Shown piece after piece: positions 22,304-64,000 of a stretch of DNA of 64,000 bases; position 1 is the first letter of the stretch, and each line of letters starts with the position of its first letter. A program made the translations under genes and the position numbers. Source of the DNA: Rhizobiaceae bacterium (GTDB lineage Bacteria; Pseudomonadota; Alphaproteobacteria; Rhizobiales; Rhizobiaceae); NCBI GenBank assembly GCA_023953775.1, contig JAMLJD010000002.1, forward strand, positions 39,245 to 103,244, read 5' to 3'. The notes under the pieces were generated by a model. That model was not told the DNA's origin and did not search any database. It saw only the letters and a program-made list of their open reading frames with translations.

Positions 22304-23053
22304 TCACACGACCAGAAAGCCGCCGTCGACGGGTATCGTGACGCCCGTGACGTATGAGGCCATGTCGGAAGCGAGGAAGATCGCTGGCCCCGCCACCTCG
22401 TCGGCCTCGCCATTGCGGCCGAGCGGGACGCGCGCCAGATGGCTTTTGCCCTTCTCGGTATCGCGGCTGCCCTCCGTCATCGCGGTCTTGATCACGCCTG
22501 GGGCGAGCGCATTGACACGAATCCCGTACGTTCCGAGCTCCCTCGCCATGTACTTGGTCAATGACACGATACCGGCCTTCGCCGCGCCGTAACCGGGGCT
22601 CGAACGCGGTGCAATGAACGCAGCAATCGACGCCGTGTAGACGATGCTGCCGCCTTCTTTCTTCAACGCCGGAATGAAGGCGTATGTCATGTCGAACTGC
22701 CCGTTCAGGTTCACGGAAATCACCTTGTCCCAGCTTTCGGTCAGCGTCTCGTCATCAACCGATACGCGCGGCGCGATGCCGGCATTGTTGACCAGAATAT
22801 GGAGAGCGCCGTGCTCATCGGTGATCCGCTTGGCAAATTCATAAACCGCCTTGCGGTCGCTGACGTCGAGCGCCGCGCCGGTCGCATCACCGCCGGCCGC
22901 CTTGATTTCCTTGGCGACTTCCTCGGCGGCACCGCCGTCGATGTCGACCACCAGGACACGCGCTCCCTCGCGCGAGAAGCCCTTGGCCACCGCAGCGCCA
23001 ATACCGCGTCCCGCGCCCGTGACGACAGCGAATTTCCCTTCCAAGAGGCCCAT
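22304..23053 (-). CDS. SDR-family oxidoreductase (3-oxoacyl-ACP reductase-like)
   Basis: The ORF has KFAVVTGAGRGIGAA, NNAG and YTASIAAF....PGYGAAK. ATG 23053 follows a GGGAGAAG ribosome-binding site. Confidence 0.85.
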   Translation of the reverse strand: MGLLEGKFAVVTGAGRGIGAAVAKGFSREGARVLVVDIDGGAAEEVAKEIKAAGGDATGAALDVSDRKAVYEFAKRITDEHGALHILVNNAGIAPRVSVDDETLTESWDKVISVNLNGQFDMTYAFIPALKKEGGSIVYTASIAAFIAPRSSPGYGAAKAGIVSLTKYMARELGTYGIRVNALAPGVIKTAMTEGSRDTEKGKSHLARVPLGRNGEADEVAGPAIFLASDMASYVTGVTIPVDGGFLVV

Positions 23054-23220
23054 ATGCACTTCTCCCGCAATCGAAATGGTGAGGTGTCCGAACTCAACCC
23101 ATTGGGTCAGGACGAGCGACCTTATCGGCGGGGGCACAGCTGCGTCATCAGCCGCGCGGCGCAAGCCACCGTTGCAGTTTCAGGAACCTCGGCTCGGTAC
23201 ACCACCTCGCAACGGCGAAT

Positions 23221-23255
23221 GGCCCGAAGCGCGCACCGGGCCTGCGCTTCGGGCC
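23221..23255. other. Perfect 12-bp stem hairpin in a divergent intergenic region
   Basis: The sequence is GGCCCGAAGCGC-N11-GCGCTTCGGGCC. It lies between the SDR start (23053, minus) and the acyl-CoA ligase start (23507, plus). No U-tract follows. Confidence 0.4.
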
Positions 23256-23506
23256 GGTCTCCTTGGGAGGAGGATTGAAGGCAGCCGCAGCATCTGCTGA
23301 GGGCCGCGCCGGTTCATCGCAACGCTCACCTTAGCCGGTATGCGGAACGGCCGGCGATATCCATCAGCGCAAAGCACCGTTTCGCCAGTCGGCGCCATTA
23401 GCGGCTCGTGCGCCGGCAACTCTGCGATATGCTTCTACGGCAATGCTGGATTGGCTGGCCGAGCTTAAATCCCGCCAAAGCGAGTTAGGTCTAATCACGG
23501 TCATTC

Positions 23507-25231: not shown

Positions 25232-25265
25232 CTTCCGGCATGCGCCCTCTCCCAATGGAGCACAG

Positions 25266-25721
25266 ATGGAACTAACCCTCGCACAGGTCCAGTCCGTCAT
25301 CGATATGTCCCAGTTCGACCGGTGGCTCGGATTGACGGCGATCGATCTCGATGAGAACGGGCTTACAATCCGAATGCCGGTGCGTCGCGAAATCCTCGGC
25401 ACCCCGAAGATTGACCGCCTTCACGGCGGAGCGGTCAGCACGCTGATCGATGCCACAGCCTGCTATCTGCTGATCGCGCTGAACAACAAGCGCGTCTCCA
25501 CGGTCGACATGGTCATCGATTATCTGCGGCCAGCCCATGGCGACATGACCGCGAGGAGCCGGGTCGTCAAATTAGGCCGAACGATCTGCGTGGTCACGGT
25601 TGAGGTAACCGGCGCCAACGGCAAGCTGGTGGCCACCGGCCGCCTGGCGATCGCCCCGTCCGATATCCCGATCGGAGAGGAGCAGCTCTTCGCCGAGCGC
25701 GCGCCGGCAACTGCCGGCTGA
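25266..25721 (+). CDS. PaaI-family hotdog-fold thioesterase
   Basis: The 151-aa ORF contains LHGGAVSTLIDATACY and VDMVIDYLRPA.GD...........GRT. The ATG lies 35 nt after the ligase stop. Confidence 0.8.
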   Translation: MELTLAQVQSVIDMSQFDRWLGLTAIDLDENGLTIRMPVRREILGTPKIDRLHGGAVSTLIDATACYLLIALNNKRVSTVDMVIDYLRPAHGDMTARSRVVKLGRTICVVTVEVTGANGKLVATGRLAIAPSDIPIGEEQLFAERAPATAG

Positions 25722-25849: not shown

Positions 25850-27492
25850 ATGAAGAAACCGGATTTCGATGCCGTCGTGATCGGTGCTGGCATCAGCGGC
25901 ATGTACCAGCTCTATAGGCTGCGCGAGCTCGGATACAACGTGCTCGGCCTCGAGGCGTCCGACGATCTCGGCGGCGTCTGGCACCAGAACCGCTATCCGG
26001 GATGCCGCATTGATTCCGAAAGCGAGATCTACGGCTACTTCTGGAACCGTGAACTGATGCAGGAATTCGACTGGACGGAGCGATTCGCCGCCCAGCCTGA
26101 AGTACTCCGCTACCTGCATCGCGCCGCCGACTACATGGATATTCGCAAGGATTTCCGGTTCAACGCGCGCGTCAAGAGCGCCGTTTTCGACGAGCAGAAC
26201 CAGTACTGGACGATCGAGCTTCAGGAAGGCGGATCGGCATCATTGACGACGCGATTCCTGTTCAGCGCGTTGGGGCCTCTCTCCGCCCCCCAGATGCCCA
26301 ATATCGAGGGTGTCCACACATTCAGGGGCGAGACATATCACACGGCCCGCTGGCCACGGGATCCAACCGGATTCGGCCCCGCTAAGATTGATTTCTCCGG
26401 CAAGCGCATCGCCGTCATCGGCACCGGATCCTCCGGCGTCCAGGTGATCCAGGAGATGGCCAAGGTCGCCAGCCATCTGACGGTCTTCCAGCGCTCGCCC
26501 AACTGGTGCACGCCGCTCGGCAACGCGCCGATGCCGAAGGAGCGCATGGACGAGATCAAGGCGGACTACGACCGGTTCATTGCCGCCTGCGACGTGTCGA
26601 TTGCGGGCTTTCCGCACCAGTTTATCGAAAAGGACCTGGCAGACGTTCCCAAGGCCGAGCGCGATGCCACCTTGGAGCAACTTTACAACGGGCCGGGCTT
26701 CTCGCTGTGGCTGGGCGCCTATCAGGATGTCCTGACAGACGAGAACGCGAACGCCTATGTCTCGCAATTCGTGGCGGACAAGATCAGGCAGCGCGTCAAG
26801 GATCCCCGGATCGCGGAGAAGCTGATCCCGAAGGACCACGGCTTCGGCCTCAAGCGCGTGCCGCTGGAGACGCGCTATTTCGAAGTCTACAACCAGGACA
26901 ATGTCAGCCTCGTCGACTTGAACGAGACGCCGATCTCCCGCATCGGCCCGACCGGCATCCACACGGAATCCGCCGACTACGAATTCGACGTGATCATCTT
27001 CGCGACCGGCTTCGACGCCATCAAGGGCTCATGGAACCGCATCGACATACGCGGCCGCAACGGCGTCTCGCTCAAGGAAACGTGGGACGAGGAAGTGAAG
27101 ACCTATATGGGACTGCAGGTCTCGGGCTTTCCGAACTTCTTCATGCTCGTCGGGCCCCAGAACGGCGCCACCTTCTGCAATATTCCCCGCTGCTCTGCTC
27201 TGGTGACCGACTGGCTCACCCAGCTCATGCATCACGCCCGTGACAACCACATCCGAACTGATCGAGGCGACGCCCGAGCTCAGGTTCATGGACATCGTAT
27301 TGCGGCCATCTGCTCGGCAAGATGCTCCTCGGCAAGACAGACTCATGGTTCACCGGCATCAACAAGAATATCGCCGGACGCAACAAGCGCGAGACCCTGC
27401 TCTTCGTCGGCGGAAACCCGAACTTCCGGAAATATTGCGAGAAGGTCGAGGCCGACGGCTTTCGCGGCTTCGAGCTGTCGCAGGTCGGCTGA
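25850..27492 (+). pseudogene. Type I Baeyer-Villiger (flavin-containing) monooxygenase with two frameshifts in its 3' end
   Basis: The N-terminus is FDAVVIGAGISGMYQLYRL...GGVWHQNRYPGCRIDSE. The second Rossmann motif is IAVIGTGSSGVQ. After ...DWLTQLMHHARDNHIRT the reading frame degenerates. The expected tail SWTSYCGHLLGKMLLGKTDSWFTGINKNIAGRNKRETLLFVGGNPNFRKYCEKVEADGFRGFELSQVG* is in another frame and ends at 27492. Confidence 0.75.
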
Positions 27493-27592: not shown

Positions 27593-28672
27593 ATGAGGGA
27601 TGGCGGAAACCTGCTCGTCGCAGGCGCCACGAGCGTCGCGACCCAACACCTGATCGAGATTGTCCGCAAGACGCCAGGCTGGACCGTCACCGGCCTCTGC
27701 CGCAATCCGCCAGCCGAGGCGCCCGCAGGCGTACGCTACGTCGCCGCGGACCTCTCGGACCCCGATTCCTGCGCCAAGGCCGTCGAGGACGGGCCGTACA
27801 CACACCTGGTCTACGCCGCTCGTGCGAAGCACACCCTTTACACCGCGATGGCACCTCACGCCCCGGTTGGGATCGAGGACGTCAGGCCGAACCTAGACAT
27901 GCTGCGCAACATCGTCGAAGCGTGCGACGGTCCGGCCCTGAAACACGTTCACGCGGTTTCCGGCGGCAAGTGGTACGGGATCCACCTCGGTCCCTACACG
28001 ACGCCCGCGCGTGAATCCGATCCCGGACATATGCCGCCCAACTTCTATTTCGACCAGCAGCGCTATCTTGAACAGCGGTCGGCCAAGCGGGGCTGGAGCT
28101 GGTCGACCAGCCGGCCCAATATCATCAGTGGCGTGACGGTCGGGGTCGGCACCAACCTTCTCTCGACGATCGGAGTCTATGCGGCGTTCTGCCGACATCT
28201 GGGCCTAGCGTTCGACTTTCCGGGCAAACCCGGCAACTACACGAGCCTGCAGGAAATGAGCGACGCGACACAGCTCGCAGAGGCGATCTTCTGGATGTGC
28301 CGCAGTCCGACGGCCGAGAACCAGGCCTTCAACGTCATCAACGGCGACCTGTTTCGATGGGAGCAGCTATGGCCGAAGCTTGCCGACCACTTCGGCCTTC
28401 GGATGGGGCGTGTCCGGCACTTCTCGCTGGTCAAATGGATGGCCGACAAGGCACCGATGTGGGACGAAATAGTCAAGGTCAACGGGCTGAGACCGCTCGC
28501 ACTCGACCAGGTTGCCTCATGGGGCTTCGCCGACTTCCTGTTGAGTTGGGACTACGACGTGATCTCGTCGATGACGAAGCTGAGACAAGCCGGGTTCCAT
28601 CGCATCGTCGACACCGAGGACATGGTGCTCGACCAGCTGGCGCAGTACCGGCGGGAAAAAGTCCTGCCGTGA
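27593..28672 (+). CDS. Atypical SDR of the PRISE family (progesterone-5beta-reductase / iridoid-synthase-like enone reductase)
   Basis: The 359-aa ORF has an atypical glycine motif (LLVAGATSVATQHL). It also has PPNFYFDQQ, WSWSTSRPNIISG, NLLSTIGVYAAFCRHLG..FDFPG, SDA.QLAEAIFW and FNV.NGDLFRWEQLWPKLADHFG, and ends ...YRREKVLP. These blocks parallel the plant PRISE blocks as I remember them. Confidence 0.7.
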   Translation: MRDGGNLLVAGATSVATQHLIEIVRKTPGWTVTGLCRNPPAEAPAGVRYVAADLSDPDSCAKAVEDGPYTHLVYAARAKHTLYTAMAPHAPVGIEDVRPNLDMLRNIVEACDGPALKHVHAVSGGKWYGIHLGPYTTPARESDPGHMPPNFYFDQQRYLEQRSAKRGWSWSTSRPNIISGVTVGVGTNLLSTIGVYAAFCRHLGLAFDFPGKPGNYTSLQEMSDATQLAEAIFWMCRSPTAENQAFNVINGDLFRWEQLWPKLADHFGLRMGRVRHFSLVKWMADKAPMWDEIVKVNGLRPLALDQVASWGFADFLLSWDYDVISSMTKLRQAGFHRIVDTEDMVLDQLAQYRREKVLP

Positions 28673-28700: not shown

Positions 28701-29018
28701 ATGACGGCACTGCTCTACGTTCGCGCGGTCGTTGCCGATCCGGCCGACCGCACAGCCTTCGACGAATGGTATGCGACGGACCATTCGCCGATGGGATACA
28801 GGCTGTTCAAGCCGAAACGGTTCTGGCGCTGCTGGAGCCATCTGGACCCGTCCGTCCATTACGCGTTCTACGAGTTCGAGAACGCCGAACGGTACGACGA
28901 GATCGTCGGAACTCCCGAATTCGAGGCGATGGTCGCCGACTTTACCCGCACCTGGGGGGACAGGGTCGTCCGTGACCGTGACGTGATCACGGTCGTCCAC
29001 CAATATCCGGAACTCTAA
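28701..29018 (+). CDS. Small hypothetical protein, possibly of the ferredoxin-like (EthD/ABM-type) alpha+beta barrel fold
   Basis: The 105-aa ORF has a good ribosome-binding site (AAGGGG) and lies 29 nt after the PRISE gene. Alternating hydrophobic/charged beta-alpha-beta patterning is present. No diagnostic motif was recognised. Confidence 0.45.
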   Translation: MTALLYVRAVVADPADRTAFDEWYATDHSPMGYRLFKPKRFWRCWSHLDPSVHYAFYEFENAERYDEIVGTPEFEAMVADFTRTWGDRVVRDRDVITVVHQYPEL

Positions 29019-29171: not shown

Positions 29172-30407
29172 CTATCGCGCTCCCGGTCCGGCAACCGCCT
29201 TGGCAGGCACCGGTACTTCGGTTTCGCCGGCGACGTCGTCGATCTCGGTTGGCGACAGCGTGGTGATGCGAGCAAGCACCTCGCGCGTATCCTCGCCCAG
29301 TTTGCGGCTCGGCGGGATCGTCATCGGCTCCATTCCGTCGAAGCGGATCGGTGTTTGCTGGACGATGATTCTGCCGATCTCAGGATGGTCCTGATATTGA
29401 AGGGCGCCGCGCTCATGCATGTTGCGGTCGCAGATCACCTCATCCAGATCGCGCACCGGCGCGCACGGCACATCGTGGGCCATCAGGATGTCGAATATCT
29501 CCGACTTGGTCCGTGGCCTTGTCCAGGCGGAAACATAGTCGTCCACCACGTCCATGTTCGTCACGCGTGACTTCAAGTCGACGAAACGCGGATCCTCTGC
29601 AAGCTCTGGCATGTCCATCGCCTTCACGAGAGCCCGCCATTGCGCCTCGCCGACACACAGGATGGCTATCCAGCCGTCCGAGGTCGGATAGACGTTGTAC
29701 GGGGATTCGGCCATGCCACCGTGGCGGTTTCCGGTCCGCGGCGGGATACCGCTTCCATGGCCTCCCCAATGCATGCCCAGGCTTGAGCTCAGCGAGGCAT
29801 AGACCGCATCCTGCATGGCCACTTCCACACGCCGCGCCTCGCCTGTCCGTTCGCGGTGATAGAGCGCGGTCAGGATCGCCGAATGCAGATGGATTCCGGC
29901 GAAGAAATCGCACAGCGCGGGACCCGCCTTGACCGGCGGGCGGTCGGGAAATCCCGTCGTCGCCATGACGCCCGAGATCGCCTGCACCGTCAGGTCCATG
30001 GCGAGGTACTTGCGATACGGACCGGTGCTGCCGAAGCCGGAACTTGCCGCATAGATGAGCCGCGGATTGATCTTCTGCAAGGCTTCGAAGCCGAGGCCGA
30101 GGCGATCCATGGTGCCGGGCGAGAAATTCTCGACGACGATGTCGGCCGTCTCGGCCATATCGAGGAAAGCCTTCTTGCCGAGTTCGGACTTGAGGTCGAG
30201 CGAGATCGACTTCTTCGCACCGTTCAACATGGCGAACGGCAGCGCCGCGCCGCCGACAACCCCGCGCCGACGCAGCGGCTCGCCCGCTGGCGGCTCGATC
30301 TTGATCACCTCGGCCCCAGCCAGGGCGAGCAGATAGGTTGCGTACGGGCCGTTATAGATCTGGCTCAGATCGATGACTCGAATGCCCTGGAGAGGATAGT
30401 CACTCAC
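29172..30407 (-). CDS. Family III CoA-transferase (CaiB/BaiF)
   Basis: The ORF has the hallmark LQGIRVIDLSQIYNGPYATYLLALAGAEVIKIEPP.GEP.R. It uses a GTG start and is 411 aa long. Confidence 0.9.
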   Translation of the reverse strand: MSDYPLQGIRVIDLSQIYNGPYATYLLALAGAEVIKIEPPAGEPLRRRGVVGGAALPFAMLNGAKKSISLDLKSELGKKAFLDMAETADIVVENFSPGTMDRLGLGFEALQKINPRLIYAASSGFGSTGPYRKYLAMDLTVQAISGVMATTGFPDRPPVKAGPALCDFFAGIHLHSAILTALYHRERTGEARRVEVAMQDAVYASLSSSLGMHWGGHGSGIPPRTGNRHGGMAESPYNVYPTSDGWIAILCVGEAQWRALVKAMDMPELAEDPRFVDLKSRVTNMDVVDDYVSAWTRPRTKSEIFDILMAHDVPCAPVRDLDEVICDRNMHERGALQYQDHPEIGRIIVQQTPIRFDGMEPMTIPPSRKLGEDTREVLARITTLSPTEIDDVAGETEVPVPAKAVAGPGAR

Positions 30408-34123: not shown

Positions 34124-34131
34124 GGCCGCCG

Positions 34132-36592: not shown

Positions 36593-36614
36593 GCCGAGAC
36601 CCTCGCTCGTCGTA

Positions 36615-53111: not shown

Positions 53112-53153
53112 GATCGGGTTTCCTTCTGTTCCGGTTATTCTGGATGAGCTTGG

Positions 53154-54457: not shown

Positions 54458-54954
54458 GCGCGTTCCGCCGGAAGAACACCCGAAAGCGATCGGAAAAATT
54501 GCAGACAAAGCAGGATGGTCATCATGCCGTAGCCGATCGGCGGGCACAGAAATCCCGGCCAAGTGGCGATGCGGGTCTCGTTCTCGATCAGGAACGTTCC
54601 GGTGGTGAACTTGATGAAGGCTTCCTGACCCGTGAACACGGTAAGAATCGCGAACACGACCGCCGATAGAAGAAAGGTCCACCCGACAAGATGCCGGCGC
54701 ACACTCTCGGGAAGCAAGTTCGTGATCACTTCGACCGAGATGTGCCCGTCGGCTCGCTGGACGAATGCCAGCGGCAGAAAGGTAATGATCGGCATGTAGT
54801 AGTTCGTGACGACCGCGATTGTTCCGGGGATCGGCTGGTTGATCAGGTACTTGCCGGCAACGTCTGCACAGACATGCACAATCATTACCGAGACCGCGAG
54901 ACCGGTGAACATCGCAATCAGGTTATCGAGCCGGCGAAACATCCCGTACCTCAT
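54454..54954 (-). CDS. dctQ: TRAP transporter small permease (DctQ family)
   Basis: The 166-aa ORF has four TM spans. Its ATGA overlaps dctM. Confidence 0.85.
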   Translation of the reverse strand: MRYGMFRRLDNLIAMFTGLAVSVMIVHVCADVAGKYLINQPIPGTIAVVTNYYMPIITFLPLAFVQRADGHISVEVITNLLPESVRRHLVGWTFLLSAVVFAILTVFTGQEAFIKFTTGTFLIENETRIATWPGFLCPPIGYGMMTILLCLQFFRSLSGVLPAERA

Positions 54955-55033
54955 GCGCGACCCGGAGTCGCCCGCCCCTTCCGACTTGCGTCGAACAGGG
55001 GCTTGGCGACCGCGAGCGTCCTTCAGGGAAGCG

Positions 55034-56224
55034 TCAGTTCATGCCGTAGGTGGCGGGATCGAGCTTGTCGAAGATCTCCTTCTGGTAGATCGCCCTCAGC
55101 GCTTCGTAGTCGCTTCCATGGCCATCGGTAAGCTTCTTCCATTTCGAGATCAGCTCTTTGACCTTGGCCACTTTCTCATCGGTGTTCTCGACGCCATATT
55201 GCTTGGCGAACTGCTCAGAGATGACGTTCAGGTCACCCTCGACGAACGCATTGGTGGCATCGACGAGTTCCTGGATCGGTTCGTTGATCGTCACGCCGGC
55301 CTTGACTGCCGCTTCTTCCGATTCCTTAACGCCTGTGTCCTGAAACATCGCCACATCGGCCACCAATCCCGCCGAACCGTTGATCAAGGTGGCTCGCTGC
55401 TCGTTGCTGAGCTGGCGCCAATAGTCCTGATTGACATTGTTCGTGGCGATGCCGGCAAAGACGCCGCCGGGGATGTTGCGGATCACCGTTTTCGTTACGT
55501 CCATCATGCGCTGTCCGAGAAGACCGCCGGTGTCGAGCATGACGCAGTCCACCACCCCTTGCGAAAGGGCGTCGTACATTTCCGAGCTGGGCATGGACAC
55601 CGCCACGCCGCCAACGCTCTCGGCCCAGCGACCGAAATTCGCCGCACCAGAGCGGAAGCGCTTGCCCTTCATGTCCTCGAGCGTGGACAGGGGGTCGCGG
55701 CACAGGAGCGAATATGTCGGAGTCGAGGCCGAAGACAGGAATATCTGGTTCTGGGCCTTGAACTGGTCGAGGCATTCCGGACAGTTGAAGAGCACATACT
55801 CCATCATTGCACCGGACATGGCAGCGAGCGGCGATTCCGTCGGCTCGCCGCTCGTCGCCAGCATCGACAGATTGGCCGCGAGATTCATCTCGGAAAACTC
55901 GGCGGGCACGTAGGCCGGGACAACGAAGCCCAGATTGGCGATGCCGTCGCGAACGCCGGCCGGCACGTCTGGCGCCAGCATCAGCGCCTTGCCGAAGAGC
56001 TTCGGTTCGAGGTCCGAATTCTCCTCAATATAGGAGACGTAGTTCTTCATCGCCTTCACGTAGGCGTTGGTATCCGGCTCCGGTATGATGATCCGGAGTT
56101 CCTCGCCAGCCGCCGTACCCAGCATCGTGCACAGCGACATCGCCGTATATACAGCGATGTTCTTGAGCCTCGCGGCCCGACGGATCTGCGAACCGTCTGT
56201 AGCGCCGTCAATTTTCGCAACCAT
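55034..56224 (-). CDS. dctP: TRAP-type (DctP-like) periplasmic substrate-binding protein
   Basis: The 396-aa ORF has an N-terminal RR-containing leader (SQIRRAARLKNIAVYTAMSLCTMLGTAAG). The operon order is P-Q-M. A GGAGG ribosome-binding site lies 7 nt upstream of ATG 56224. The family assignment relies largely on context. Confidence 0.7.
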   Translation of the reverse strand: MVAKIDGATDGSQIRRAARLKNIAVYTAMSLCTMLGTAAGEELRIIIPEPDTNAYVKAMKNYVSYIEENSDLEPKLFGKALMLAPDVPAGVRDGIANLGFVVPAYVPAEFSEMNLAANLSMLATSGEPTESPLAAMSGAMMEYVLFNCPECLDQFKAQNQIFLSSASTPTYSLLCRDPLSTLEDMKGKRFRSGAANFGRWAESVGGVAVSMPSSEMYDALSQGVVDCVMLDTGGLLGQRMMDVTKTVIRNIPGGVFAGIATNNVNQDYWRQLSNEQRATLINGSAGLVADVAMFQDTGVKESEEAAVKAGVTINEPIQELVDATNAFVEGDLNVISEQFAKQYGVENTDEKVAKVKELISKWKKLTDGHGSDYEALRAIYQKEIFDKLDPATYGMN

Positions 56225-56577
56225 TTCGGGTTCCTCCCCATGAAAAAACAACTGCGCGCTCCAGATGCCCGAACGCGGATGTCAGGAAACGCTACCATCG
56301 GCCCCGAAGGCGGCGAAGCACGCTCCACGTAACGGTCCTTTGCGATTGACGCTTCTCACTGCATCCGCGCGGTCGTACCTGCCTCTCACCTTGCCGGCGA
56401 AACACGTCACCCGCTGCAACTGACACGCGCAAGCACTTGTTAGAAAACGATAATCTCGTCCATGGCAAAGCCAGAACGCGGCTATGAATGCGCCTGTTCA
56501 GGTGTCGTGAGATTGTCGTGAGCGGCGATGGCCTTGTCTCGGGCTTCTCTCGCAATGAAACGAAGTTCGGATTTTTG

Positions 56578-56592: not shown

Positions 56593-56678
56593 CGATCTGA
56601 CTAGATTTTGCGCGTCATCCTCGTTCCGCCGATGCCTCGAATACCCGTCGCCGAACGAGTGTGCATGGGAGGAAAACA

Positions 56679-57647
56679 ATGGACACGCTCTATAGTCTTC
56701 GACTCTTCGTCGGAGCTGCCGAGGAAGGCAGCTTCTCCGCCACGGCGCGGAAGTTCGGCATCTCCACTGCCACCGTGTCGCGCAGCATAGATAGCCTCGA
56801 AAAGCAGCTCGGCTTCCAGCTCTTTCTGAAGACCAGCCGCCAGATCGGCCTCACCGAAGCTGGCCAGTGCTATCTCGGGAATGTACAGCGTCTGCTTCCC
56901 GAACTCGACAATGCGACAGAGTTCGCCAGGGGCTTTCACTCGGAAGCGAAGGGTCACCTTAACGTACGTGCGCGCATGGCGGTCGGAAGCATTTGCATTG
57001 CGCCTCTGATCCCCAAATTCCTCGGCAAGTATCCCGATATCGAGCTGAATTTCTGGCTCACCAACGATCTCGATACGGACCTCGTCTCCAAGAATATCGA
57101 CATCGATATCCGCACCGGCGTGCTGCAGGATTCGTCACTCATCGCGCGCAAGCTCGCCGACTCCAAACGCCTGATCGTGGCCAGTCCGGCATATCTGGAA
57201 GAACACGGCACACCCCAGACGCCCTATGATCTCGAGGATCACAATTGCATCCGGTTCACGACCGGTCCGAGTCCCGTCCACTGGCGCTTCAAGGACAAGG
57301 CGGGCCACGAGATCGGCGTTGTTCCGAAGGGCAATCTCGTCACCAACAACGGGTCGATCATCCGCCGCGCGGTACGGTCCGGAAACGGCATCGCGCATCT
57401 TACCGACTGGTCGGTCGCCAAGGACCTCGAGGCGGGTTCGCTGGTGCAGATCCTCGCCGATTACGATGTGACCGTCGACAAATTCAATCACGGTATCTAC
57501 GCCGTGTTCCTTCCCAACCGGACCCAGTCGCACAAGGTCCGCTGCTTCGTCGACTTCCTTGTCGAGGAACTGCGCCAGCAAGCCAGCGCCTGGCCAAGCC
57601 TGGAGAACGAGGACGAGCTTGACGAATATGTGGAGGCGGCGGAGTAG
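56679..57647 (+). CDS. LysR-family transcriptional regulator
   Basis: The HTH is LRLFVGAAEEGSFSATARKFGISTATVSRSIDSLEKQLGFQLFLKTSRQIGLTEAG. A GGGAGG ribosome-binding site precedes the start. Confidence 0.9.
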   Translation: MDTLYSLRLFVGAAEEGSFSATARKFGISTATVSRSIDSLEKQLGFQLFLKTSRQIGLTEAGQCYLGNVQRLLPELDNATEFARGFHSEAKGHLNVRARMAVGSICIAPLIPKFLGKYPDIELNFWLTNDLDTDLVSKNIDIDIRTGVLQDSSLIARKLADSKRLIVASPAYLEEHGTPQTPYDLEDHNCIRFTTGPSPVHWRFKDKAGHEIGVVPKGNLVTNNGSIIRRAVRSGNGIAHLTDWSVAKDLEAGSLVQILADYDVTVDKFNHGIYAVFLPNRTQSHKVRCFVDFLVEELRQQASAWPSLENEDELDEYVEAAE

Positions 57648-57750: not shown

Positions 57751-58102
57751 TAGACCCTTTCAGGATGAGATGGAAACGGTTCTGTTTTCCGATGGTGCGG
57801 CGATCCGCCAGAAGGGCGGCGACGGGCGATGTTGTTCATCGGCCAAGCCGGCCGACGCCGCGGGCGCCCGCCAGCGGAAAACCCAGTTGGTTTGCCTTCG
57901 GCAAAACCAACAGGCAGAGAGCGCCGGTCGTCCCGAGCCACTTCGCAGAAGCGGCGGCGACCGGTGGTGGGCCGGGCGCTTTCGGGCCGCTTCCATCGGG
58001 TTCCGGCTTGACCGTAGCACCGCTACGGCCTTTGTCGGCCCCCTCGATGCCGATCCGAAATCGCTCCGGCAGAACGATTCCATCTCACCCTGAAAGGGTC
58101 TA
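57751..58102. repeat. MITE/RIME-like non-autonomous element bounded by ~31-nt imperfect terminal inverted repeats
   Basis: The left arm is TAGACCCTTTCAGGATGAGATGGAAACGGTTC (57751-57782). The reverse complement of the right arm (58072-58102) is TAGACCCTTTCAGGGTGAGATGGAATCGTTC. Two mismatches and one indel separate them. Internal hairpins occur at about 57886-57911 and in the right half of the element (CCGTAGC-ACC-GCTACGG). No credible ORF lies inside. Confidence 0.5.
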
Positions 58103-59824
58103 GAAGCGCTTCCGGGTCAACCACATCGAGATCACCACCACGGTACTCATCATCGCCGTGATGATGAGCGCGAAACCGGCGAGCGGAGGAAACGAGCCGT
58201 TCGTCCACAACTCCAGGATTACGAAACCGGAAACCGGATTGCGGTTTCCGGCCAGCATCGCCGACGCGGTGATATCGCCTGCGGTAAGCACGAACAACAT
58301 CGTCCATCCGGCCGCCAGACCCGGGATGATAAGCGGCAGGGTCACCCGAAAGAATGTCGCTCCGGTCGACGCGCCCGAGACGAGCGACGCCTCGACCAGC
58401 TGGCGGCTCACCTGCGCAAGCGCCGAACCCGCGGTAAGCGACGCCTGCGGCATGTACAGCACGATATAGGCCAGGAACAGGATCAGCATCGTGCCATGCA
58501 TGAAGAACGGCGCTCCAGCGAAGGCCGAGATGAATGCGATGCCGATCACGAGATGCGAGACGACAGCGGGAAGCTTGGTTGCTCCGTCGACGAAGGCGGC
58601 AAAGCCGGAACTCCGGTGGCGGTCGATGTAGAACGTCACGATCGCCGCGATCAGCATTCCCACAGTCGCCCCCGCAATGCCGAGGAGGATGCTGTTACGC
58701 AGCCCTTCCCACGCCATCGAGTTGGCGGAAAACATGCGGACATAGTGTTTTAGTCCGAGATTGGCGATGTTCAGATTCGAACTCCAGAACGGCTGGACGC
58801 TTACGATCGCCAGCGCGACCAAGGGCAACACGGAGGTGACGATGAGGTACAGGATCATCAAGCCCCTGATAGGCCAGCGGAACATGCCGAACCGCACCAA
58901 CGCGACACGCATTCCCCGCCCGCCAATGGTCGCGAACTTGCCGGAGCGGATAACCGAGCGCTGGATAAGCCAGGACAGCCCGATGAGACCGACGATCATC
59001 AACCCGAGTAGCATCGCCACACCCGGCTTGGGCGGATAGCTTGCAATCATCGAATGAACGATCCTCACGGACAGTATCTCGATCCCTGACTGCCCCCCGA
59101 TGATCAGCGGGATCGAAAACAGCGCGAAACCGGTTATCAACGCCAGGATTCCGCCCGACAGCATCGCCGGCATCACCGCTGGCAGGGTGACCATCCGCAA
59201 CGTTGCCCACGGACCCGCGCCGCTCATACGCGAGGCCTCCTCGAGCGATGGATCGAGATTGCGCAGCGCCGCGGAGACCGTCAGATAGACGTGGGGGACC
59301 AGGTAAATGACATAGACACCCATGAGTCCCGGCCAACTGAAGATGTTGAACACCGGACCGACGTCGTCGAAGCCGAACCATGCGGCGGCATTCGCTACCC
59401 AGGCATTGAGAAAGCCGGCACGCGGGGCCGCCAGGAGCACCCAGCCGATCGCGCCGGCTATCGGCGGCACAAGGAGGGGAATGATCGGCAGTGTCTTGCC
59501 CAGGAACGGCATGCCGATATCTGTACGCTCCGTGAGCCAGGCGAATACGCCGCCGACAATCATTGCCATGATCGCAGCACCGCCGACGACGACCAGCGTG
59601 TCGAGGAACAGCGCGCCAAGATTGGGCTCACGCATGAACTGTTCGAAGGGTGCCGGATCGAGCGTCCAGCCGTCAAAGAAGACGTCGATGGCAACCCAAC
59701 CGAGCGGATAGATGATCACCGCCGCCACGAAAATTGAGACAGCAGCGGCGAGCCACGAGAACCAGTCGAAGAAGAAGCTGCTCCGACCGACCGGGCGGAT
59801 GCTTGCACGAGCGACGTCGCTCAT
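58100..59824 (-). CDS. Two-domain ABC transporter permease (FbpB / iron(III)- or thiamine-type)
   Basis: The ~574-aa ORF is polytopic, with two BPD_transp_1-like halves (EEASRMSGAGPWATLRMVTLP and LVEASLVSGASTGATFFRVTLP). Its start ATGA overlaps the ATPase stop. Confidence 0.85.
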   Translation of the reverse strand: MSDVARASIRPVGRSSFFFDWFSWLAAAVSIFVAAVIIYPLGWVAIDVFFDGWTLDPAPFEQFMREPNLGALFLDTLVVVGGAAIMAMIVGGVFAWLTERTDIGMPFLGKTLPIIPLLVPPIAGAIGWVLLAAPRAGFLNAWVANAAAWFGFDDVGPVFNIFSWPGLMGVYVIYLVPHVYLTVSAALRNLDPSLEEASRMSGAGPWATLRMVTLPAVMPAMLSGGILALITGFALFSIPLIIGGQSGIEILSVRIVHSMIASYPPKPGVAMLLGLMIVGLIGLSWLIQRSVIRSGKFATIGGRGMRVALVRFGMFRWPIRGLMILYLIVTSVLPLVALAIVSVQPFWSSNLNIANLGLKHYVRMFSANSMAWEGLRNSILLGIAGATVGMLIAAIVTFYIDRHRSSGFAAFVDGATKLPAVVSHLVIGIAFISAFAGAPFFMHGTMLILFLAYIVLYMPQASLTAGSALAQVSRQLVEASLVSGASTGATFFRVTLPLIIPGLAAGWTMLFVLTAGDITASAMLAGNRNPVSGFVILELWTNGSFPPLAGFALIITAMMSTVVVISMWLTRKRF

Positions 59825-60939
59825 GGATGCTCTGCATCGATGTCGAAGACGCAAAACGCGTCGGCCTTGACGCGACACCAGACCTGAGTCCCGATCGGGA
59901 GAAGCTCCGAACCCTGTTGCCAGATCTGGATGTCGTGCTTGTCGTTCAGGTCGACCAAATACTCGTTGTGCGAACCGAGAAACGCCGAGGCCCTGATCCT
60001 GCCTTTCCAGGAAAGTCCTCCTTCAAGGGGAGCGGTCGCTATCTCCCAGCGCTCTGGCCGCGAGACGAGGGCGATCCGCTCGGCGGCCGGAACGGCTCCA
60101 GCCGGAAGCTCGATTGTTCCCAGTGATGTCTCAACGGCTGGCGTCGTTCCTGCAGCGAGTACCCGTCCGTCGATCTGGTTGGCGGAACCGATAAAGCGCG
60201 CGACTTTTAGACTGTTCGGCGAAAAATAGACCTCCTGGGGCGTGCCAAGCTGGCTTATCCGACCGTCCGCGACCACCGCGATACGCGTCGCCAGGCTCAT
60301 TGCCTCCTCCTGGTCGTGCGTCACGTAAAGCGCAGTGAAGCCAAGTTCGCGCTGCATGGACAGCAGTTCGAGCCGGAGATGCTCCCGCACTTTGGCATCC
60401 ACGTTGGACAGCGGCTCGTCGAACAGGATCAGATTGTCGCCGCGAACCAGCGCCCGGGCCAGGGCAACCCTCTGCTGCTGGCCACCGCTGATCTGTCCGG
60501 GATACTGCCCCCCAAGTTCGGGAATCCGCATCAACTCGAGTATGCGAGCTACCTTGTCGTCGATGTCGCCGCGTCCAAGTCCGCTCATCTTGAGCGGATA
60601 GCCGACATTCTGCCCGACCGTCATATGCGGCCACAGCGCATAGGACTGGAACACCATGCCGATGTGCCTGCGTTCCGGCGGCACCTCAATCTTGCGGGCG
60701 GCGTCGAAAACGTCGTCCCCATCCAGGCTGATCGCACCGGAATCGGGCTGTTCGAGGCCCGCAACGCAACGCAAAAGCGTGGTCTTGCCGCAACCGCTTG
60801 GGCCGAGCAGGACAACGAGCTCGCCGCTTCTTACGTCGAGTGAGACGTTATCGATCGCGTGCACCAGCTGACCGCTGGCGCGGCGATAGGTCTTGCTGAG
60901 GTTCGTAAGCTTGAGCTGGAGATCGCCTTTGGCAGGCAT
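59821..60939 (-). CDS. ABC transporter ATP-binding protein (FbpC/PotA-like with a C-terminal TOBE-type domain)
   Basis: Walker A is GPSGCGKTT, the signature is LSGGQQQRVALARAL and Walker B is LILFDEPLS. The start was chosen at ATG 60939 (AGGAG upstream). The ORF stays open to 60972. Confidence 0.9.
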   Translation of the reverse strand: MPAKGDLQLKLTNLSKTYRRASGQLVHAIDNVSLDVRSGELVVLLGPSGCGKTTLLRCVAGLEQPDSGAISLDGDDVFDAARKIEVPPERRHIGMVFQSYALWPHMTVGQNVGYPLKMSGLGRGDIDDKVARILELMRIPELGGQYPGQISGGQQQRVALARALVRGDNLILFDEPLSNVDAKVREHLRLELLSMQRELGFTALYVTHDQEEAMSLATRIAVVADGRISQLGTPQEVYFSPNSLKVARFIGSANQIDGRVLAAGTTPAVETSLGTIELPAGAVPAAERIALVSRPERWEIATAPLEGGLSWKGRIRASAFLGSHNEYLVDLNDKHDIQIWQQGSELLPIGTQVWCRVKADAFCVFDIDAEHP

Positions 60940-61047
60940 TGAAAGCGCGCTCCTGTCATCGTTCAGGTACATAAGGGCAAAGCGTGCTCACAATGTCATC
61001 ACGGCCGCCAAGACGAAAGCCGCCGCCTCAGGCGGCGGCATCGTCGG

Positions 61048-62043
61048 CTATTGCAAGCCGAGCAGCTTGACGATTTCGGCACTGTGCTCCGAAAGCTCCG
61101 GGATGCGCGGATCGATGTAGTCAGACGGCATCGGCGCCGTATCGGGGATGTTCGCCAGCGGCGAAACGCTGGTCGGCCCGTTATAGGCTTGCTGTCCAGC
61201 CTCGGTGAACAGGAAGTTCATGAAGCACCGCGCCGCGTTCGGGCTGTCTGCACCTTGCGAGAGGATCGTCTCGAACTCGTTTCCGGTCGTCAATTCCGGA
61301 GCGACGAAGTCGATCGGTGCGCCATCGATTATCAACACCCGAAGCGTCGTCATCACGCTCGGAATGACGACGGTCACCTCGCCTGCCGCGAGTTGCTGCG
61401 TCGCCGGCACGACGCTCGGCACGACGACAGGTTCCTGGGAGGCCACACCCTCCAGGAAATCGTCCCCGTACTTTTCTCGCAGGATCCGGAACAACGCCAT
61501 GTAGGACGGAACGTTTCTTGGGTCACCGAGAATGATCTTGCCCTTGAAATCTGGGCGCATCAGGTCTTCCCAGCTCTTCGGCGGGTTGTCGCCCACCAGG
61601 TCCGTGTTGTAGCCAAAGCCCAGCATGCTGATGCTGGTGGTAGCAGATCCGCCGTCGAACCATTTGTCGTCGAGCTCAGCCAGCGCCGGAAGCTCCGACT
61701 TCTCGATCTTCACGAACCAGTCCTTGGCGAATCCGTCCGCGATGAAATTGGGATCGGCCAGCGAAATCAGGTCGGCGTTGACAACGCCTGCGTCGCGCTC
61801 GGATGCATAGCGTATGGCCAGCTTGCCGGTGGAAAGGCGGAACCCTTCTATCTCGATATCCGGATACGCACTCTTGAACGCCGCGATTGCCGCTTCGTTG
61901 CGCGACGGATCCTGGGACGAATACCAGATCAGCGACGGCTCCGCCGCGCCGGCCTCGCAGACCTCGTCGATCGTTGCAGCAGCGGCCACACCCGCGCCAA
62001 GCCCCAGCGCGGTTGCAAGAGACAGTGTTATGATTGGCTTCAC
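61048..62043 (-). CDS. Extracellular solute-binding protein (iron(III)/polyamine-type, SBP family 1)
   Basis: GTG 62043 follows a GGGAGG ribosome-binding site. The signal peptide is VKPIITLSLATALGLGAGVAAA. SLIWYSS......AAIAAFK.AYPDI follows. Confidence 0.8.
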   Translation of the reverse strand: MKPIITLSLATALGLGAGVAAAATIDEVCEAGAAEPSLIWYSSQDPSRNEAAIAAFKSAYPDIEIEGFRLSTGKLAIRYASERDAGVVNADLISLADPNFIADGFAKDWFVKIEKSELPALAELDDKWFDGGSATTSISMLGFGYNTDLVGDNPPKSWEDLMRPDFKGKIILGDPRNVPSYMALFRILREKYGDDFLEGVASQEPVVVPSVVPATQQLAAGEVTVVIPSVMTTLRVLIIDGAPIDFVAPELTTGNEFETILSQGADSPNAARCFMNFLFTEAGQQAYNGPTSVSPLANIPDTAPMPSDYIDPRIPELSEHSAEIVKLLGLQ

Positions 62044-62303
62044 GGTATCCTCCCTGGATCGAAGCGTGTGGTGACACAGCGCGCCGCCGCCGTGAACCGG
62101 ATGCATTCCGTCTCTCCAGCTTTGATCGACGGCTGCCGACGTACGGCCACGCAACTGGCCTCGACAAACGACAATAAGGTTCGACACCCGCTGATACGAC
62201 AGCCGATTCAGCAACGCACCCTTGCAAATTCCGCGCCTGCAAGCCGCCGCCGATGATGTGAGATTCCTTGGGAAACCAGGGCGGGACAGCAAAGGTACGA
62301 CGA

Positions 62304-63458
62304 ATGACGGAGCATATCCAACCCAGCTATGCGGGCTTGCGTGTCGTCGATTTCACCAGGGTACTTGCCGGACCTTTCGCGACCATGATCCTTGCCGATC
62401 TTGGCGCCGAGGTCATCAAGGTCGAAGCGGAAAGGGGCGACGATTCCCGGCATCTCCCGCCGAAATGGGGCCAGGAGAGCACCGCATTCCTGGCCGTGAA
62501 CCGCAATAAGAAAAGCGTCGTCCTCGACCTCAAGACGGCGGCTGGAAGTGCTGCCGCACTGAAGCTGTGCCAGACTGCCGACGTGGTCATTGAGAGCTTC
62601 CGCCCAGGCACCATGGAACGATTGGGGCTTGGATTCGACGCTGTCGCCGCCGGAAACGACCGTGTCGTCTATTGTTCCATTTCCGCATTCGGCGCCGGAC
62701 GGCTGGGCCGTGACATGCCGGGCTATGACGCTCTGCTGCAGGCTTTCTCAGGCATCCTCAAATCGACCGGACATCCCGGTGAGGCCCCTGTCCGCATCGG
62801 GCCATCGGCGATCGATCTCACGACGGGTATGTGGGCGGCCATCCAGATCATGGCGGCACTTGCCCGACGCGACCGGATTTCCGCCCCGCAGCGTCTGGAT
62901 GCGGTCCTGATCGACGCTTCTCTCAACCTTATGTGCCATCAACTGATCGGCACTCTGGCGACTGGCGTCGCACCACAGCCACAGGGTTCTGGTGCACCAA
63001 GCACTGCGCCATACGAGATATTCCGGGCCAGCGACGGCGAACTAATGATCGCCGCGGGAAACGACAGGCTGTTCGCCATACTGTGCGCGGAGATCGGTCG
63101 TCCAGAGCTTGCAACATTACCGAACTACCGGACGATGTCGGACCGGGTCGCAAATCGGCGTGCCCTGCATGATGCGATCGAATCCAGGCTTCTTGAAGAC
63201 AGCGTCGGGCAATGGCTTCGGCGGCTCGCCGCCGCTGGTGTCCCAGCCGGAGCGGTTCAGGATCTGAAGCAGGCAGCCGAGCATCCCCTCGTGGCGGAGC
63301 GTAGCCTGATATATCCGAGTCCGACGGACGACGCTCCGGACCTCAGATTGCTTAGGCTGCCGCTGGGCGACCTCGCATGCCACAGATTGCCGCCGCCGAA
63401 GCTTGGCGAGCATACAGAAGAAGTGTTGCGCGACATGGGCATCGATGACCCAGGATAG
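62304..63458 (+). CDS. Family III CoA-transferase (CaiB/BaiF), second copy
   Basis: The ORF contains GLRVVDFTRVLAGPFATMILADLGAEVIKVE and is 384 aa long. Confidence 0.9.
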   Translation: MTEHIQPSYAGLRVVDFTRVLAGPFATMILADLGAEVIKVEAERGDDSRHLPPKWGQESTAFLAVNRNKKSVVLDLKTAAGSAAALKLCQTADVVIESFRPGTMERLGLGFDAVAAGNDRVVYCSISAFGAGRLGRDMPGYDALLQAFSGILKSTGHPGEAPVRIGPSAIDLTTGMWAAIQIMAALARRDRISAPQRLDAVLIDASLNLMCHQLIGTLATGVAPQPQGSGAPSTAPYEIFRASDGELMIAAGNDRLFAILCAEIGRPELATLPNYRTMSDRVANRRALHDAIESRLLEDSVGQWLRRLAAAGVPAGAVQDLKQAAEHPLVAERSLIYPSPTDDAPDLRLLRLPLGDLACHRLPPPKLGEHTEEVLRDMGIDDPG

Positions 63459-63509
63459 GCGGCAGACCCGGCGCATGTGGACATGACGCCGGGCACCGCT
63501 CAGGCTGAT

Positions 63510-64000
63510 CTAGCCGGTGGCGGTTTCCGCCTCGCGCGCAGATGCTGACGGCTTTCCGCCACCCTTGTCGCCCGCATCGGAGAAGATGAACCCGCGATAG
63601 TCGTCGTCGCGAATGTCCTTGCAGAGCGCCTTGAATTTCGGATTCCCGCCCGCGTAGAACAAGACCTGACGCACCTGCCGTCCGGGGATGTTGTTGTTGA
63701 CCCCCGTGAACCAGGAATTGGTCGAGCCCAGCAGCGAATGGCCGAGCAATTCGTGGCACAGCTCGTTCCAGTCATGTTGCGCCTGTCTGGTCGGCTCGAT
63801 CCGCGTCGCACCTTCGGCGCGCGCGTCGACCATCAACTGCGTGATCCAGTCGATGGCTGTCACCGAGCAGCGCGGCAGGTTGCAAAACACAGTCCCGTTC
63901 TGCGGCCCGATCAGCGTGAAAAGGTTCGGGAAACCGACGATCTGGAGCCCGAGATAGGTCTGCACGCCATCCGCCCAGGCCTCCTTCAGGGTGACGCCGT
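63510..64000 (-). CDS. Type I Baeyer-Villiger monooxygenase, second copy, C-terminal part only (gene continues past the window end)
   Basis: The ORF reads ...YLGLQIVGFPNLFTLIGPQNGTVFCNLPRCSVTAIDWITQLM...NSWFTGVNNNIPGR...FYAGGNPKF. It is colinear with, and paralogous to, the broken BVMO at 25850-27492, and its frame is intact. Confidence 0.8.
   Translation of the reverse strand, partial: GVTLKEAWADGVQTYLGLQIVGFPNLFTLIGPQNGTVFCNLPRCSVTAIDWITQLMVDARAEGATRIEPTRQAQHDWNELCHELLGHSLLGSTNSWFTGVNNNIPGRQVRQVLFYAGGNPKFKALCKDIRDDDYRGFIFSDAGDKGGGKPSASAREAETATG

Follow-up and report, generated by a model that had tools for sequence, protein, structure and literature searches.

Rhodococcus erythropolis DCL14 possesses LimB, a luciferase-like monooxygenase (LLM), together with a monoterpene-ketone Baeyer–Villiger monooxygenase (BVMO) and a lactone hydrolase. 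The Arthrobacter cyclohexaneacetate pathway proceeds by hydration and a lyase step to cyclohexanone and acetyl-CoA, on which a BVMO step follows; the BVMO substrates of both pathways are a free acid or a free ketone. In the lower camphor pathway of Pseudomonas putida ATCC 17453, as presented in PMC6352141, the CoA synthetase CamF1/F2 and the BVMO OTEMO (CamG) occur with the CamE diketocamphane monooxygenases and a flavin reductase, and OTEMO acts on a cyclopentenone-acetic acid once a dedicated ligase has converted it to the CoA ester. Ltp2 and Sal, the only characterised thiolase-fold aldolases named in a review (PMC12329534), carry the motifs YDHF and YDCY, respectively, with the Tyr acting as catalytic base. 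The nucleophile position is occupied by Gly in Sal; the second catalytic acid is Cys304 in Sal, where C304S is inactive, and Tyr344 in Ltp2 (PMC12329534). Here we analyse a 64,000-nt stretch of DNA (the window) from a Rhizobiaceae bacterium (assembly GCA_023953775.1, contig JAMLJD010000002.1, positions 39,245 to 103,244), whose catabolic region joins relatives of OTEMO and of Ltp2/Sal in a cross-phylum gene core for which no published substrate was found. On balance, we consider it probable that this cluster serves a soil or wastewater alphaproteobacterium in breaking down, in the form of CoA thioesters, a terpenoid-like alicyclic ketone or carboxylic acid.

The catabolic region starts at position 22304 of the window and comprises ~40 genes over 42 kb, with its right border beyond the window end. 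Genes were called from third-position GC content (GC3) and frame bias, and annotated by Pfam and NCBIfam scans; the NCBIfam scan took in 20 window proteins, with the transporter genes and some others outside that set. Twelve genes make up a conserved core: SDR_a, Lig1, BVMO, SGL, CoAT2, ACAD, ECH, Thl1, Lig2, DUF35, Thl2 and MaoC1 (Table 1). In our ortholog table, their orthologues show 44–82% amino acid identity and are co-located around BVMO1 orthologues, and the core recurs in Rhodobacterales (Oceanicola), on a Rhodococcus plasmid, in a Solirubrobacteraceae metagenome-assembled genome (MAG) and on several metagenome contigs. It is thus distributed over Rhodobacterales of marine origin, Hyphomicrobiales of soil and wastewater, Rhodococcus and Solirubrobacteraceae. 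None of the core neighbours was present at over 40 metagenome loci whose BVMO was ≤66% identical. Because 12 orthologue-level genes travel together across two phyla, the core is predicted to be one functional unit. An earlier note on this DNA had read the whole region as a single catabolic unit for CoA activation, Baeyer–Villiger oxygenation, lactone hydrolysis and β-oxidation, which scattering of the genes in relatives would have spoken against. That reading is supported for the 12-gene core, which is kept together across the two phyla; it may not extend to the peripheral modules, among them the enone reductase (PRISE) and the LLM with its flavin reductase, both of which the note had counted as parts of the pathway.

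Among the relatives, an 82%-identical metagenome contig (ERZ27315062 k141_1618532, 64.8 kb; loci L089 and L144) is colinear from SDR_a to CoAT2 over nearly all of the 42 kb. This contig lacks PRISE/orf105, the SDR_d-TRAP segment and the element resembling a miniature inverted-repeat transposable element (MITE), and has another flavoprotein of 609 aa at the BVMO2 site. L086/L092 (83%) share the short-chain dehydrogenase/reductase (SDR), Lig1, 4HBT, BVMO, PRISE, orf108, ECH, CoAT, SGL, LLM, flavin reductase and ABC system. Among relatives with a name, the MAG 'Rhizobiales bacterium 65-9' (L001; LLM 82% and acyl-CoA dehydrogenase, ACAD, 88% identical) comes nearest, with Lig2, ECH, ACAD, MFS, binding protein, ABC system, flavin reductase, LLM, SGL and CoAT1. 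For L086/L092 and L001, colinearity holds over the parts covered by their contigs. In Oceanicola sp. 502str15 (identities 54–82%), the order is SDR (minus strand), Lig1, 4HBT and BVMO; binding protein, ATPase and permease; LysR (minus strand); and MaoC, Thl2, DUF35, Thl1, ECH and ACAD. Read along its minus strand, the right half of the window shows a colinear arrangement. L145 presents Thl1, DUF35, Thl2 and MaoC, then LysR, then SDR, Lig1, 4HBT, BVMO, ECH and CoAT2. In the Solirubrobacteraceae MAG (L140), TetR, MaoC, Thl2, DUF35, Lig2, Thl1, ECH, BVMO, SDR and SGL follow one another on one strand. L139 (GCA_942492295.1) and plasmid pR8L1 of Rhodococcus sp. 008 (L141) combine the core set with a P450 and a ferredoxin, which suggests a non-oxygenated ring C–H substrate as the starting compound in these organisms. 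Both loci also carry SnoaL/NTF2-like genes, and L141 an FAD-dependent oxidoreductase that may be a ferredoxin reductase; Rhodococcus sp. 008 is a cultured isolate.

BVMO membership was judged by two Rossmann GxGxxG motifs and the fingerprint FxGxxxHxxxW[P/D]. BVMO1 carries GAGISG at residue 12, GTGSSG at residue 191 and the fingerprint FRGETYHTARWP at residue 158. Its alignment with OTEMO extends over 460 aa and scores 572 bits, as against ~415 bits for PAMO, STMO and CHMO (none above 418). BVMO2 runs past the window end; on a contig of 99.0% nucleotide identity (L142) the gene is intact, encodes 567 aa and has a SnoaL-like gene after it. In that version, BVMO2 is 65% identical to BVMO1 and again matches OTEMO best in the PDB (607 vs 484 bits). 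By these comparisons, both BVMOs are assigned to the OTEMO clade, and the parallel with the camphor pathway drawn by the earlier note is backed on the BVMO side. To our knowledge, OTEMO is the only CoA-ester-specific BVMO that has been characterised. Lig1 and the hotdog-fold thioesterase lie directly 5' of BVMO1, and these adjoining genes, together with the similarity to OTEMO, point to activity on CoA esters. At least hundreds of BVMO homologues at ≥70% identity are listed, some of them belonging to clusters with over 100 members.

Thl2 is a protein of thiolase fold that is encoded contiguously with MaoC1 and DUF35. We aligned it with six orthologues from Alphaproteobacteria, Actinomycetota and metagenome contigs. 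Opposite NACASG of Thl1 and ACASGG of 7YVY, Thl2 has the segment HSGGS, and Gly occupies the nucleophile position in all six; the motif YDSY is likewise invariant (6/6), at the position where Thl1 has HDAA. The Oceanicola orthologue is 82% identical. In the PDB, Thl2 matches the uncharacterised thiolase-like protein 4U4E (E = 4e-42) and Ltp2 (6OK1; E = 5.6e-22), and its neighbour DUF35 carries a C4 zinc ribbon (C-x2-C-x10-C-x2-C). The lost Cys, the YDSY motif and the MaoC and DUF35 neighbours recall ChsH1-ChsH2-Ltp2 of actinobacteria and Shy-Sal of proteobacteria, where a MaoC protein and DUF35 also accompany a Cys-less thiolase fold with a Tyr-Asp-x-aromatic motif; the Gly at the nucleophile position is shared with Sal. 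On these grounds, Thl2/DUF35 is probably a retro-aldolase rather than a thiolase, although this prediction is not secure. The protein that the earlier note had named 'Ltp-like thiolase' thus carries an Ltp2/Sal-like motif and lacks the thiolase nucleophile. Unlike in the ChsH and Shy-Sal systems, DUF35 and MaoC are here separate small proteins, unfused, the motif reads YDSY, no steroid-ring degradation context surrounds them, and the similarity of Thl2 to Ltp2 is modest.

Table 1. Features of the catabolic region, in window positions, with the evidence for each assignment
Feature	Position	Strand	Evidence
SDR_a, classical short-chain dehydrogenase	22304..23053	-	Pfam adh_short_C2 E = 1e-65; open frame to 23164
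Lig1, acyl-CoA ligase, 574 aa	23507..25231	+	Pfam AMP-binding E = 8e-74; no NCBIfam equivalog
Hotdog-fold (PaaI-like) thioesterase	25263..25721	+	Pfam 4HBT E = 6e-13; TIGR00369 79 bits, above cutoff
BVMO1, OTEMO-clade type-I BVMO (assigned by similarity), frameshifted	25850..27492	+	60% identical to OTEMO (PDB 3UOV)
PRISE-like extended SDR, putative enone reductase	27593..28672	+	Pfam PRISE 59.2 bits, cutoff 27
orf105, small conserved protein beside PRISE	28701..29018	+	no Pfam match
CoAT1, family-III CoA-transferase	29172..30407	-	Pfam CoA_transf_3 E = 4e-115
SGL/SMP-30-type beta-propeller, putative lactonase	30480..31475	-	Pfam SGL E = 1.3e-18
LLM, luciferase-like flavin monooxygenase, 392 aa	31651..32829	-	Pfam Bac_luciferase E = 5e-47
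Flavin reductase, two-domain	33089..34123	+	Pfam Flavin_Reduct E = 6e-42; NF045919 208 bits, cutoff 340
LIV-type ABC uptake: 2 ATPases, 2 permeases, binding protein	34132..38910	-	Pfam ABC_tran, BPD_transp_2, Peripla_BP_6
MFS transporter	39141..40397	-	Pfam MFS_1 E = 3e-44
SDR_b, last gene of the operon	40485..41252	-	Pfam adh_short matched by both halves
ACAD, acyl-CoA dehydrogenase	41249..42385	-	all four Pfam ACAD domains
ECH, crotonase, 277 aa	42400..43233	-	Pfam ECH_1 E = 9e-49
Thl1, SCP2-type thiolase with nucleophilic Cys	43245..44423	-	Pfam Thiolase_N, Thiolase_C_1; NACASG, HDAA
Lig2, acyl-CoA ligase, likely ATG 46028, giving 527 aa	44445..46028	-	Pfam AMP-binding E = 1.5e-73
DUF35 protein, zinc ribbon and OB fold	46046..46438	-	Pfam OB_ChsH2_C, zf-ChsH2
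Thl2, thiolase fold without nucleophile, putative retro-aldolase	46435..47670	-	Gly for Cys; YDSY
MaoC1, single-hotdog (R)-hydratase, first gene of the operon	47674..48153	-	Pfam MaoC_dehydratas E = 7e-20
MaoC2, double-hotdog hydratase pseudogene	48462..~49325	-	286-aa L144 orthologue aligns in four segments, three frames
SDR_c, intact	49339..50127	-	Pfam adh_short_C2 E = 2e-69; 62% identical in L144
Amidohydro_2 pseudogene	50312..51333	+	frame changes between 50821 and 50947; weak Pfam Amidohydro_2
MDR/Zn-ADH-type dehydrogenase pseudogene	51383..52281	+	ADH_N and faint ADH_zinc_N_2 fragments, different frames
SDR_d and TRAP transporter (DctM, DctQ, DctP)	52311..56251	-	Pfam; DctQ 54454-54954
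LysR-type regulator	56661..57647	+	Pfam HTH_1, LysR_substrate
MITE-like element, 352 bp, 28-nt terminal inverted repeats	57751..58102		repeats 93% complementary
Second ABC uptake: fused double permease, TOBE-domain ATPase, SBP_bac-type binding protein	58100..62292	-	Pfam
CoAT2, family-III CoA-transferase, 384 aa	62304..63458	+	Pfam E = 7.5e-111
BVMO2, C-terminal 162 codons, gene runs past window	63510..64000	-	translation; full gene on L142

The remaining core genes are equally recognisable in the relatives. SDR_a has its likely ATG at 23053, which gives 249 aa, the length found in relatives, and its orthologues (51–68% identity) adjoin the BVMO in every relative tabulated. Lig1 orthologues (48–72%) lie upstream of the BVMO, and the 4HBT thioesterase between them is kept only in the alphaproteobacterial versions of the cluster. 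CoAT2 has a 99%-identical counterpart of 384 aa (P0121); it is found at 72% directly after BVMO-ECH in L145 and at 47–48% in the actinobacterial clusters. SGL orthologues (56–57%) sit within the BVMO-SDR-SGL operons of L139, L140 and L141.

Thl2 is part of the tightly packed operon of eight minus-strand genes that the earlier note had described between 48153 and 40485 (MaoC, thiolase-like protein, DUF35, ligase, thiolase, crotonase, ACAD and SDR). This operon is borne out, with intergenic gaps or overlaps of ≤21 nt. The 159-aa MaoC1 orthologue of L144 aligns to 48153-47683 at 87% identity, Lig2 occupies an equal operon position in L139 and L140 (61–63%), and ACAD is 62–69% identical in the actinobacterial clusters. 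ECH was considered as a 6-oxocamphor hydrolase, but that enzyme is absent from its 60 best PDB matches, all of which are generic enoyl-CoA hydratases. L001 lacks SDR_b entirely, with none between its ACAD and MFS genes. In the window, the SDR_b frame is open and the Rossmann motif TGGGGGLG intact; no ATG, GTG or TTG is present between the ACAD stop and this motif. A CTG at 41252, at its 5' end, overlaps the ACAD TGA. In metagenome gene calls, SDR_b starts at the equivalent of 41162, which would remove the Rossmann motif. This could reflect an unusual start codon, translational coupling or inactivation of the gene.

The cluster in this genome is a partly decayed copy, core BVMO1 included. Four genes are frameshifted, with at least eight frame changes concentrated in ~4.5 kb: two in BVMO1, at least three in MaoC2, at least one in the amidohydrolase and at least two in the MDR gene. 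The earlier note had called the first BVMO broken, and comparison with P0001 indeed places two breaks in it, one near 27252 (+1 indel) and one near 27283-27290 (net -2), with the N-terminal 467 and the C-terminal 68 codons in different frames. P0001 is an intact BVMO1 allele, a metagenome protein of 547 aa and 99% identity. The second BVMO had been called intact, a claim that the window does not allow to be read, as it holds only the last codons of the gene; none of the two BVMO frames is thus intact within the window, BVMO1 being frameshifted and BVMO2 cut by the window end. L144 carries the other three broken genes in intact form (MaoC2, 286 aa; amidohydrolase, 341 aa; MDR, 304 aa). In tblastn searches, the amidohydrolase orthologues of L144 and L093, both intact at 341 aa, gave two high-scoring segment pairs in different frames. 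The MDR break was also seen by tblastn with the L144 MDR and the L138 ADH, and by three-frame translation. SDR_c is intact between the MaoC2 and Amidohydro_2 pseudogenes, and ~33 other genes of the region, all other core genes among them, have no frame break, most of them with near-full-length Pfam matches. An exact look-up of SDR_c for an independent contig found none on record, so that it does not separate pseudogenes from assembly errors. The clustering of at least eight frame changes in four genes speaks for genuine decay, at any rate in MaoC2 and the MDR gene, and against random errors of assembly. BVMO2 may take over the ring-opening step from BVMO1.

A further feature of this copy is the MITE-like element between the LysR and ABC permease genes, where the gap in L144 is only 44 nt. 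It folds as single-stranded DNA with z = -8.2, and its inverted repeat had no chance matches in shuffled sequence. The SDR_d-TRAP segment is absent between MDR and LysR in L144 and has the lowest GC content of the region (0.603), which suggests a later insertion into the cluster, specific to the lineage of the window.

PRISE, orf105, CoAT1, LLM with its flavin reductase, the LIV-type ABC system, MFS, SDR_b, SDR_c, SDR_d, MaoC2, the amidohydrolase, MDR and TRAP are peripheral, judged by their distribution among relatives, and confined to this lineage; they presumably widen the substrate range. Every gene that the earlier note had listed between 22304 and 64000 was recovered in place by Pfam and NCBIfam; the list had missed MaoC2, Amidohydro_2, the MDR/Zn-ADH gene and DctQ. 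Its count of at least five SDRs agrees with four classical SDRs plus PRISE, and its three uptake systems with the LIV-type ABC, TRAP and second ABC transporters. It had also named an MFS exporter; the MFS transporter is present, but its direction of transport cannot be read from the sequence. The LIV-type ABC system is 71–89% identical in close relatives. Orthologues of the second ABC system (54–72%) adjoin the BVMO in Oceanicola and L144. LysR is 81% identical in L144 and 59–60% in Oceanicola and L145, adjoining the corresponding genes. CoAT1 is 83–87% identical in the close relatives L001, L086 and L089.

PRISE proteins are recognised by the catalytic Lys and Tyr motifs GxKxY and NFYY. The window protein has GGKWYG for the former and reads NFYF for the latter. 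Like the plant enzymes (progesterone 5-beta-reductase and iridoid synthase), it keeps the lysine motif and matches over its full length (2V6F, E = 2e-46 over residues 8-358; 5COA, E ~1e-46). It differs from them in being bacterial, only moderately similar, with NFYF for NFYY, and in lying outside the conserved core. It is 75% identical in L086/L092, where the orf105 orthologue (68%) directly follows PRISE in L086, and it is absent from L089.

LLM matches 7BIP best in the PDB (E = 4.5e-29). It is absent from Oceanicola, L140, L141 and L145, and the L139 LLM is only 26% identical. Homologues at 60–68% identity are named 'limonene 1,2-monooxygenase' by JGI/NCBI, a label that derives from similarity and not from assay. 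The flavin reductase is encoded divergently from LLM, an arrangement kept in L001, L086 and L089. It is ~320-344 aa long with a C-terminal extension, nearest to the reductase component of p-hydroxyphenylacetate 3-hydroxylase and not to the short HpaC/Fre type, and may be regulated by substrate. LLM homologues (57–67%) are widespread in Alphaproteobacteria and Variovorax, often near paralogues of family-III CoA-transferase, ACAD, ECH and SDR. This hints that the LLM family generally acts in CoA-thioester catabolism. Among 80 genomes with such homologues, only L001 is syntenic, and L047 has an SGL homologue (55%) beside LLM.

We infer every step of the pathway that follows; what was observed are gene identities, family membership, conserved co-localisation and frameshifts. 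An ABC or TRAP system would import the acid, and a ligase or CoA-transferase would make the CoA ester. ACAD, a MaoC hydratase and Thl2/DUF35 could then shorten or remove the side chain at a branched or ring carbon by a retro-aldol step, as in steroid side-chain cleavage. SDR_a would oxidise a ring hydroxyl to the ketone; in the actinobacterial versions, the P450 would install this hydroxyl. The OTEMO-type BVMO would insert oxygen beside the ring ketone of the CoA ester to give a lactone, the SGL protein would open it, and ECH, SDR_b and Thl1 would β-oxidise the resulting branched dicarboxylyl-CoA. Unsaturated or bicyclic ketones plausibly reach the core through PRISE and through the LimB-like LLM and its reductase. 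In pathway logic, this scheme resembles those of DCL14 and Arthrobacter in the succession of alcohol to ketone, BVMO, lactone hydrolysis, CoA activation and β-oxidation, and in the removal of a ring side chain by hydration and a C–C lyase. In the searched literature, no gene cluster of this composition was found for either pathway, nor any characterised pathway or cluster of this composition elsewhere. A more specific reading, which we consider less likely than not, is that the core encodes an uncharacterised, widespread aerobic pathway in which a new YDSY-type clade of retro-aldolases within the thiolase superfamily (Thl2/DUF35/MaoC) and an OTEMO-type CoA-ester BVMO dismantle an oxo-cycloalkyl-acetic or -alkanoic acid that is common in nature. 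Candidate substrates would be monoterpenoid ring acids, jasmonate-type cyclopentanone oxylipins and naphthenic acids.

Several points weigh against the degradation of an alicyclic, terpenoid-like compound as CoA thioesters. None of the 20 proteins scanned reached an NCBIfam equivalog cutoff, and, as the earlier note had cautioned, the sequence does not reveal the substrate. For the BVMOs, specificity towards CoA esters would be an extrapolation from 60% identity to one characterised enzyme. The third position of the Thl2 motif is Ser, where Sal has Cys and Ltp2 His, and it is this exchange, C304S, that abolished activity in Sal. The putative lactonase is a generic SMP-30-type propeller, assigned by its SGL domain and with weak similarity to PDB entries. 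The conservation of the core does not include PRISE, LLM, TRAP and other modules, so that 'one pathway' may hold for the core only, and elsewhere the neighbours of LLM homologues are unrelated or match at paralogue level only. With four broken genes, the pathway may not run in this strain.

Two known pathways could be taken to explain the cluster outright. An orthologue of the camphor (cam) pathway encoded by the P. putida CAM plasmid would account for an OTEMO-like BVMO beside a CoA ligase and for an LLM with a flavin reductase, following the logic of camF/camG and camE/Fred: in both systems, a cyclic keto-acid would be activated with CoA before a type-I BVMO of the same clade acts on the ring of the CoA ester, and genes for a two-component LLM monooxygenase with its flavin reductase lie close by. 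We nevertheless regard it as improbable. P450cam, putidaredoxin and its reductase are missing, no window open reading frame (ORF) containing a P450 or ferredoxin domain by Pfam, and 60% identity to OTEMO denotes clade membership rather than clear orthology. LLM, which the earlier note had compared to a camphor-type component, was rejected as a diketocamphane monooxygenase: it matches 3,6-DKCMO (4UWM) only remotely (E = 8.5e-16) and only over residues 29-151, its N-terminal third, a further point against a terpenoid-type reading. This cluster also has a dedicated SGL protein, whereas camphor lactones open spontaneously (PMC6352141), and it adds a β-oxidation/retro-aldolase operon, CoA-transferases and several transporters; the passages of that review consulted do not mention MaoC, Thl2 or DUF35 for the CAM plasmid. 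A cluster for degrading the side chain or rings of steroids or bile acids is more improbable still. MaoC, a thiolase-like aldolase and DUF35 are the hallmark of ChsH1-ChsH2-Ltp2 and Shy-Sal (PMC12329534), the BVMO is related to steroid monooxygenase and Thl2 matches Ltp2, but Thl2 is nearer to 4U4E, its motif is neither YDHF nor YDCY, and both BVMOs are much nearer to OTEMO than to steroid monooxygenase. The Pfam survey of the window found no KstD, KshAB, HsaA-D or IpdAB-type genes.

The cluster might instead be a non-functional relic of a pathway being lost in this strain, which we consider unlikely on the whole. The four frameshifted genes with core BVMO1 among them, the MITE-like insertion, the lack of a canonical SDR_b start codon and the intact copies kept by relatives (P0001, L144) would all fit such a loss. 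Three of the four broken genes are peripheral, however, the ~33 unbroken genes include every other core gene, some frameshifts could be assembly errors, and the BVMO2 found intact on the 99%-identical contig could replace BVMO1. Slightly more doubtful is a mosaic of unrelated neighbouring catabolic operons (fatty-acid or branched-chain β-oxidation, transporters and assorted oxidoreductases) with no common pathway. The modules do vary, with PRISE/orf105 absent from L089, TRAP, SDR_d and MITE from L144, and LLM, flavin reductase and CoAT1 from Oceanicola, L140 and L141; LLM homologues have other neighbours elsewhere, and three different uptake systems suggest several substrates. Against this, 12 orthologue-level genes lie within 10–20 kb of the BVMO in two phyla, with 10 of them consecutive on one strand in L140. 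As this conservation is hard to explain without functional coupling, a mosaic can hold only for the peripheral modules.

Should the proposed degradation of alicyclic acids by the core be true, steroid-style aldol cleavage of side chains and Baeyer–Villiger chemistry on CoA esters would form a general route for such acids, and the core could fill a gap in the bacterial mineralisation of alicyclic terpenoid-type acids after ring activation. Naming the substrate would give function to many proteins in genomes and in marine and soil metagenomes. The CoA-ester BVMO, the retro-aldolase and the bacterial PRISE enone reductase are possible biocatalysts. For this genome, the meaning is more modest, as it holds a partly decayed copy. 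An alicyclic catabolic cluster is an ordinary object in itself, its distinctive features being the uncharacterised cross-phylum core and an aldolase clade that is probably new.

The region had also been called an accessory island, which is not demonstrated. The Pfam survey found no integrase or transposase among the window ORFs, no tRNA was found in the window, the left border included, and the GC contrast is modest (0.622 in the region, 0.648 upstream; window ~62-65%). The left flank of the region differs from that in L086 and L089. A plasmid origin was considered, and a homologous cluster sits on pR8L1, but when 24.7 kb were compared with PLSDB by megablast, the matches were only ~55 nt long, and the region corresponds to no known plasmid. 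Most likely, this genome carries the cluster as a chromosomal catabolic supercluster. In the window, Rfam gave no matches, and promoter and terminator scans gave matches no commoner than in shuffled sequence.

Positions 1-22116 hold chromosomal genes of other function: a NYN-domain protein, an M24 peptidase, PPK2, a desaturase, a PadR regulator, a VWA protein with an ECF sigma factor, an MttB-type methyltransferase with a corrinoid protein, and a P-type ATPase. The MttB-family methyltransferase (614-aa ORF, Pfam MTTB 778 bits) adjoins corrinoid-binding and DUF1638 proteins at 14066-17439. This segment is unconnected to the catabolic cluster and resembles a demethylation module of the quaternary-amine or glycine-betaine type.

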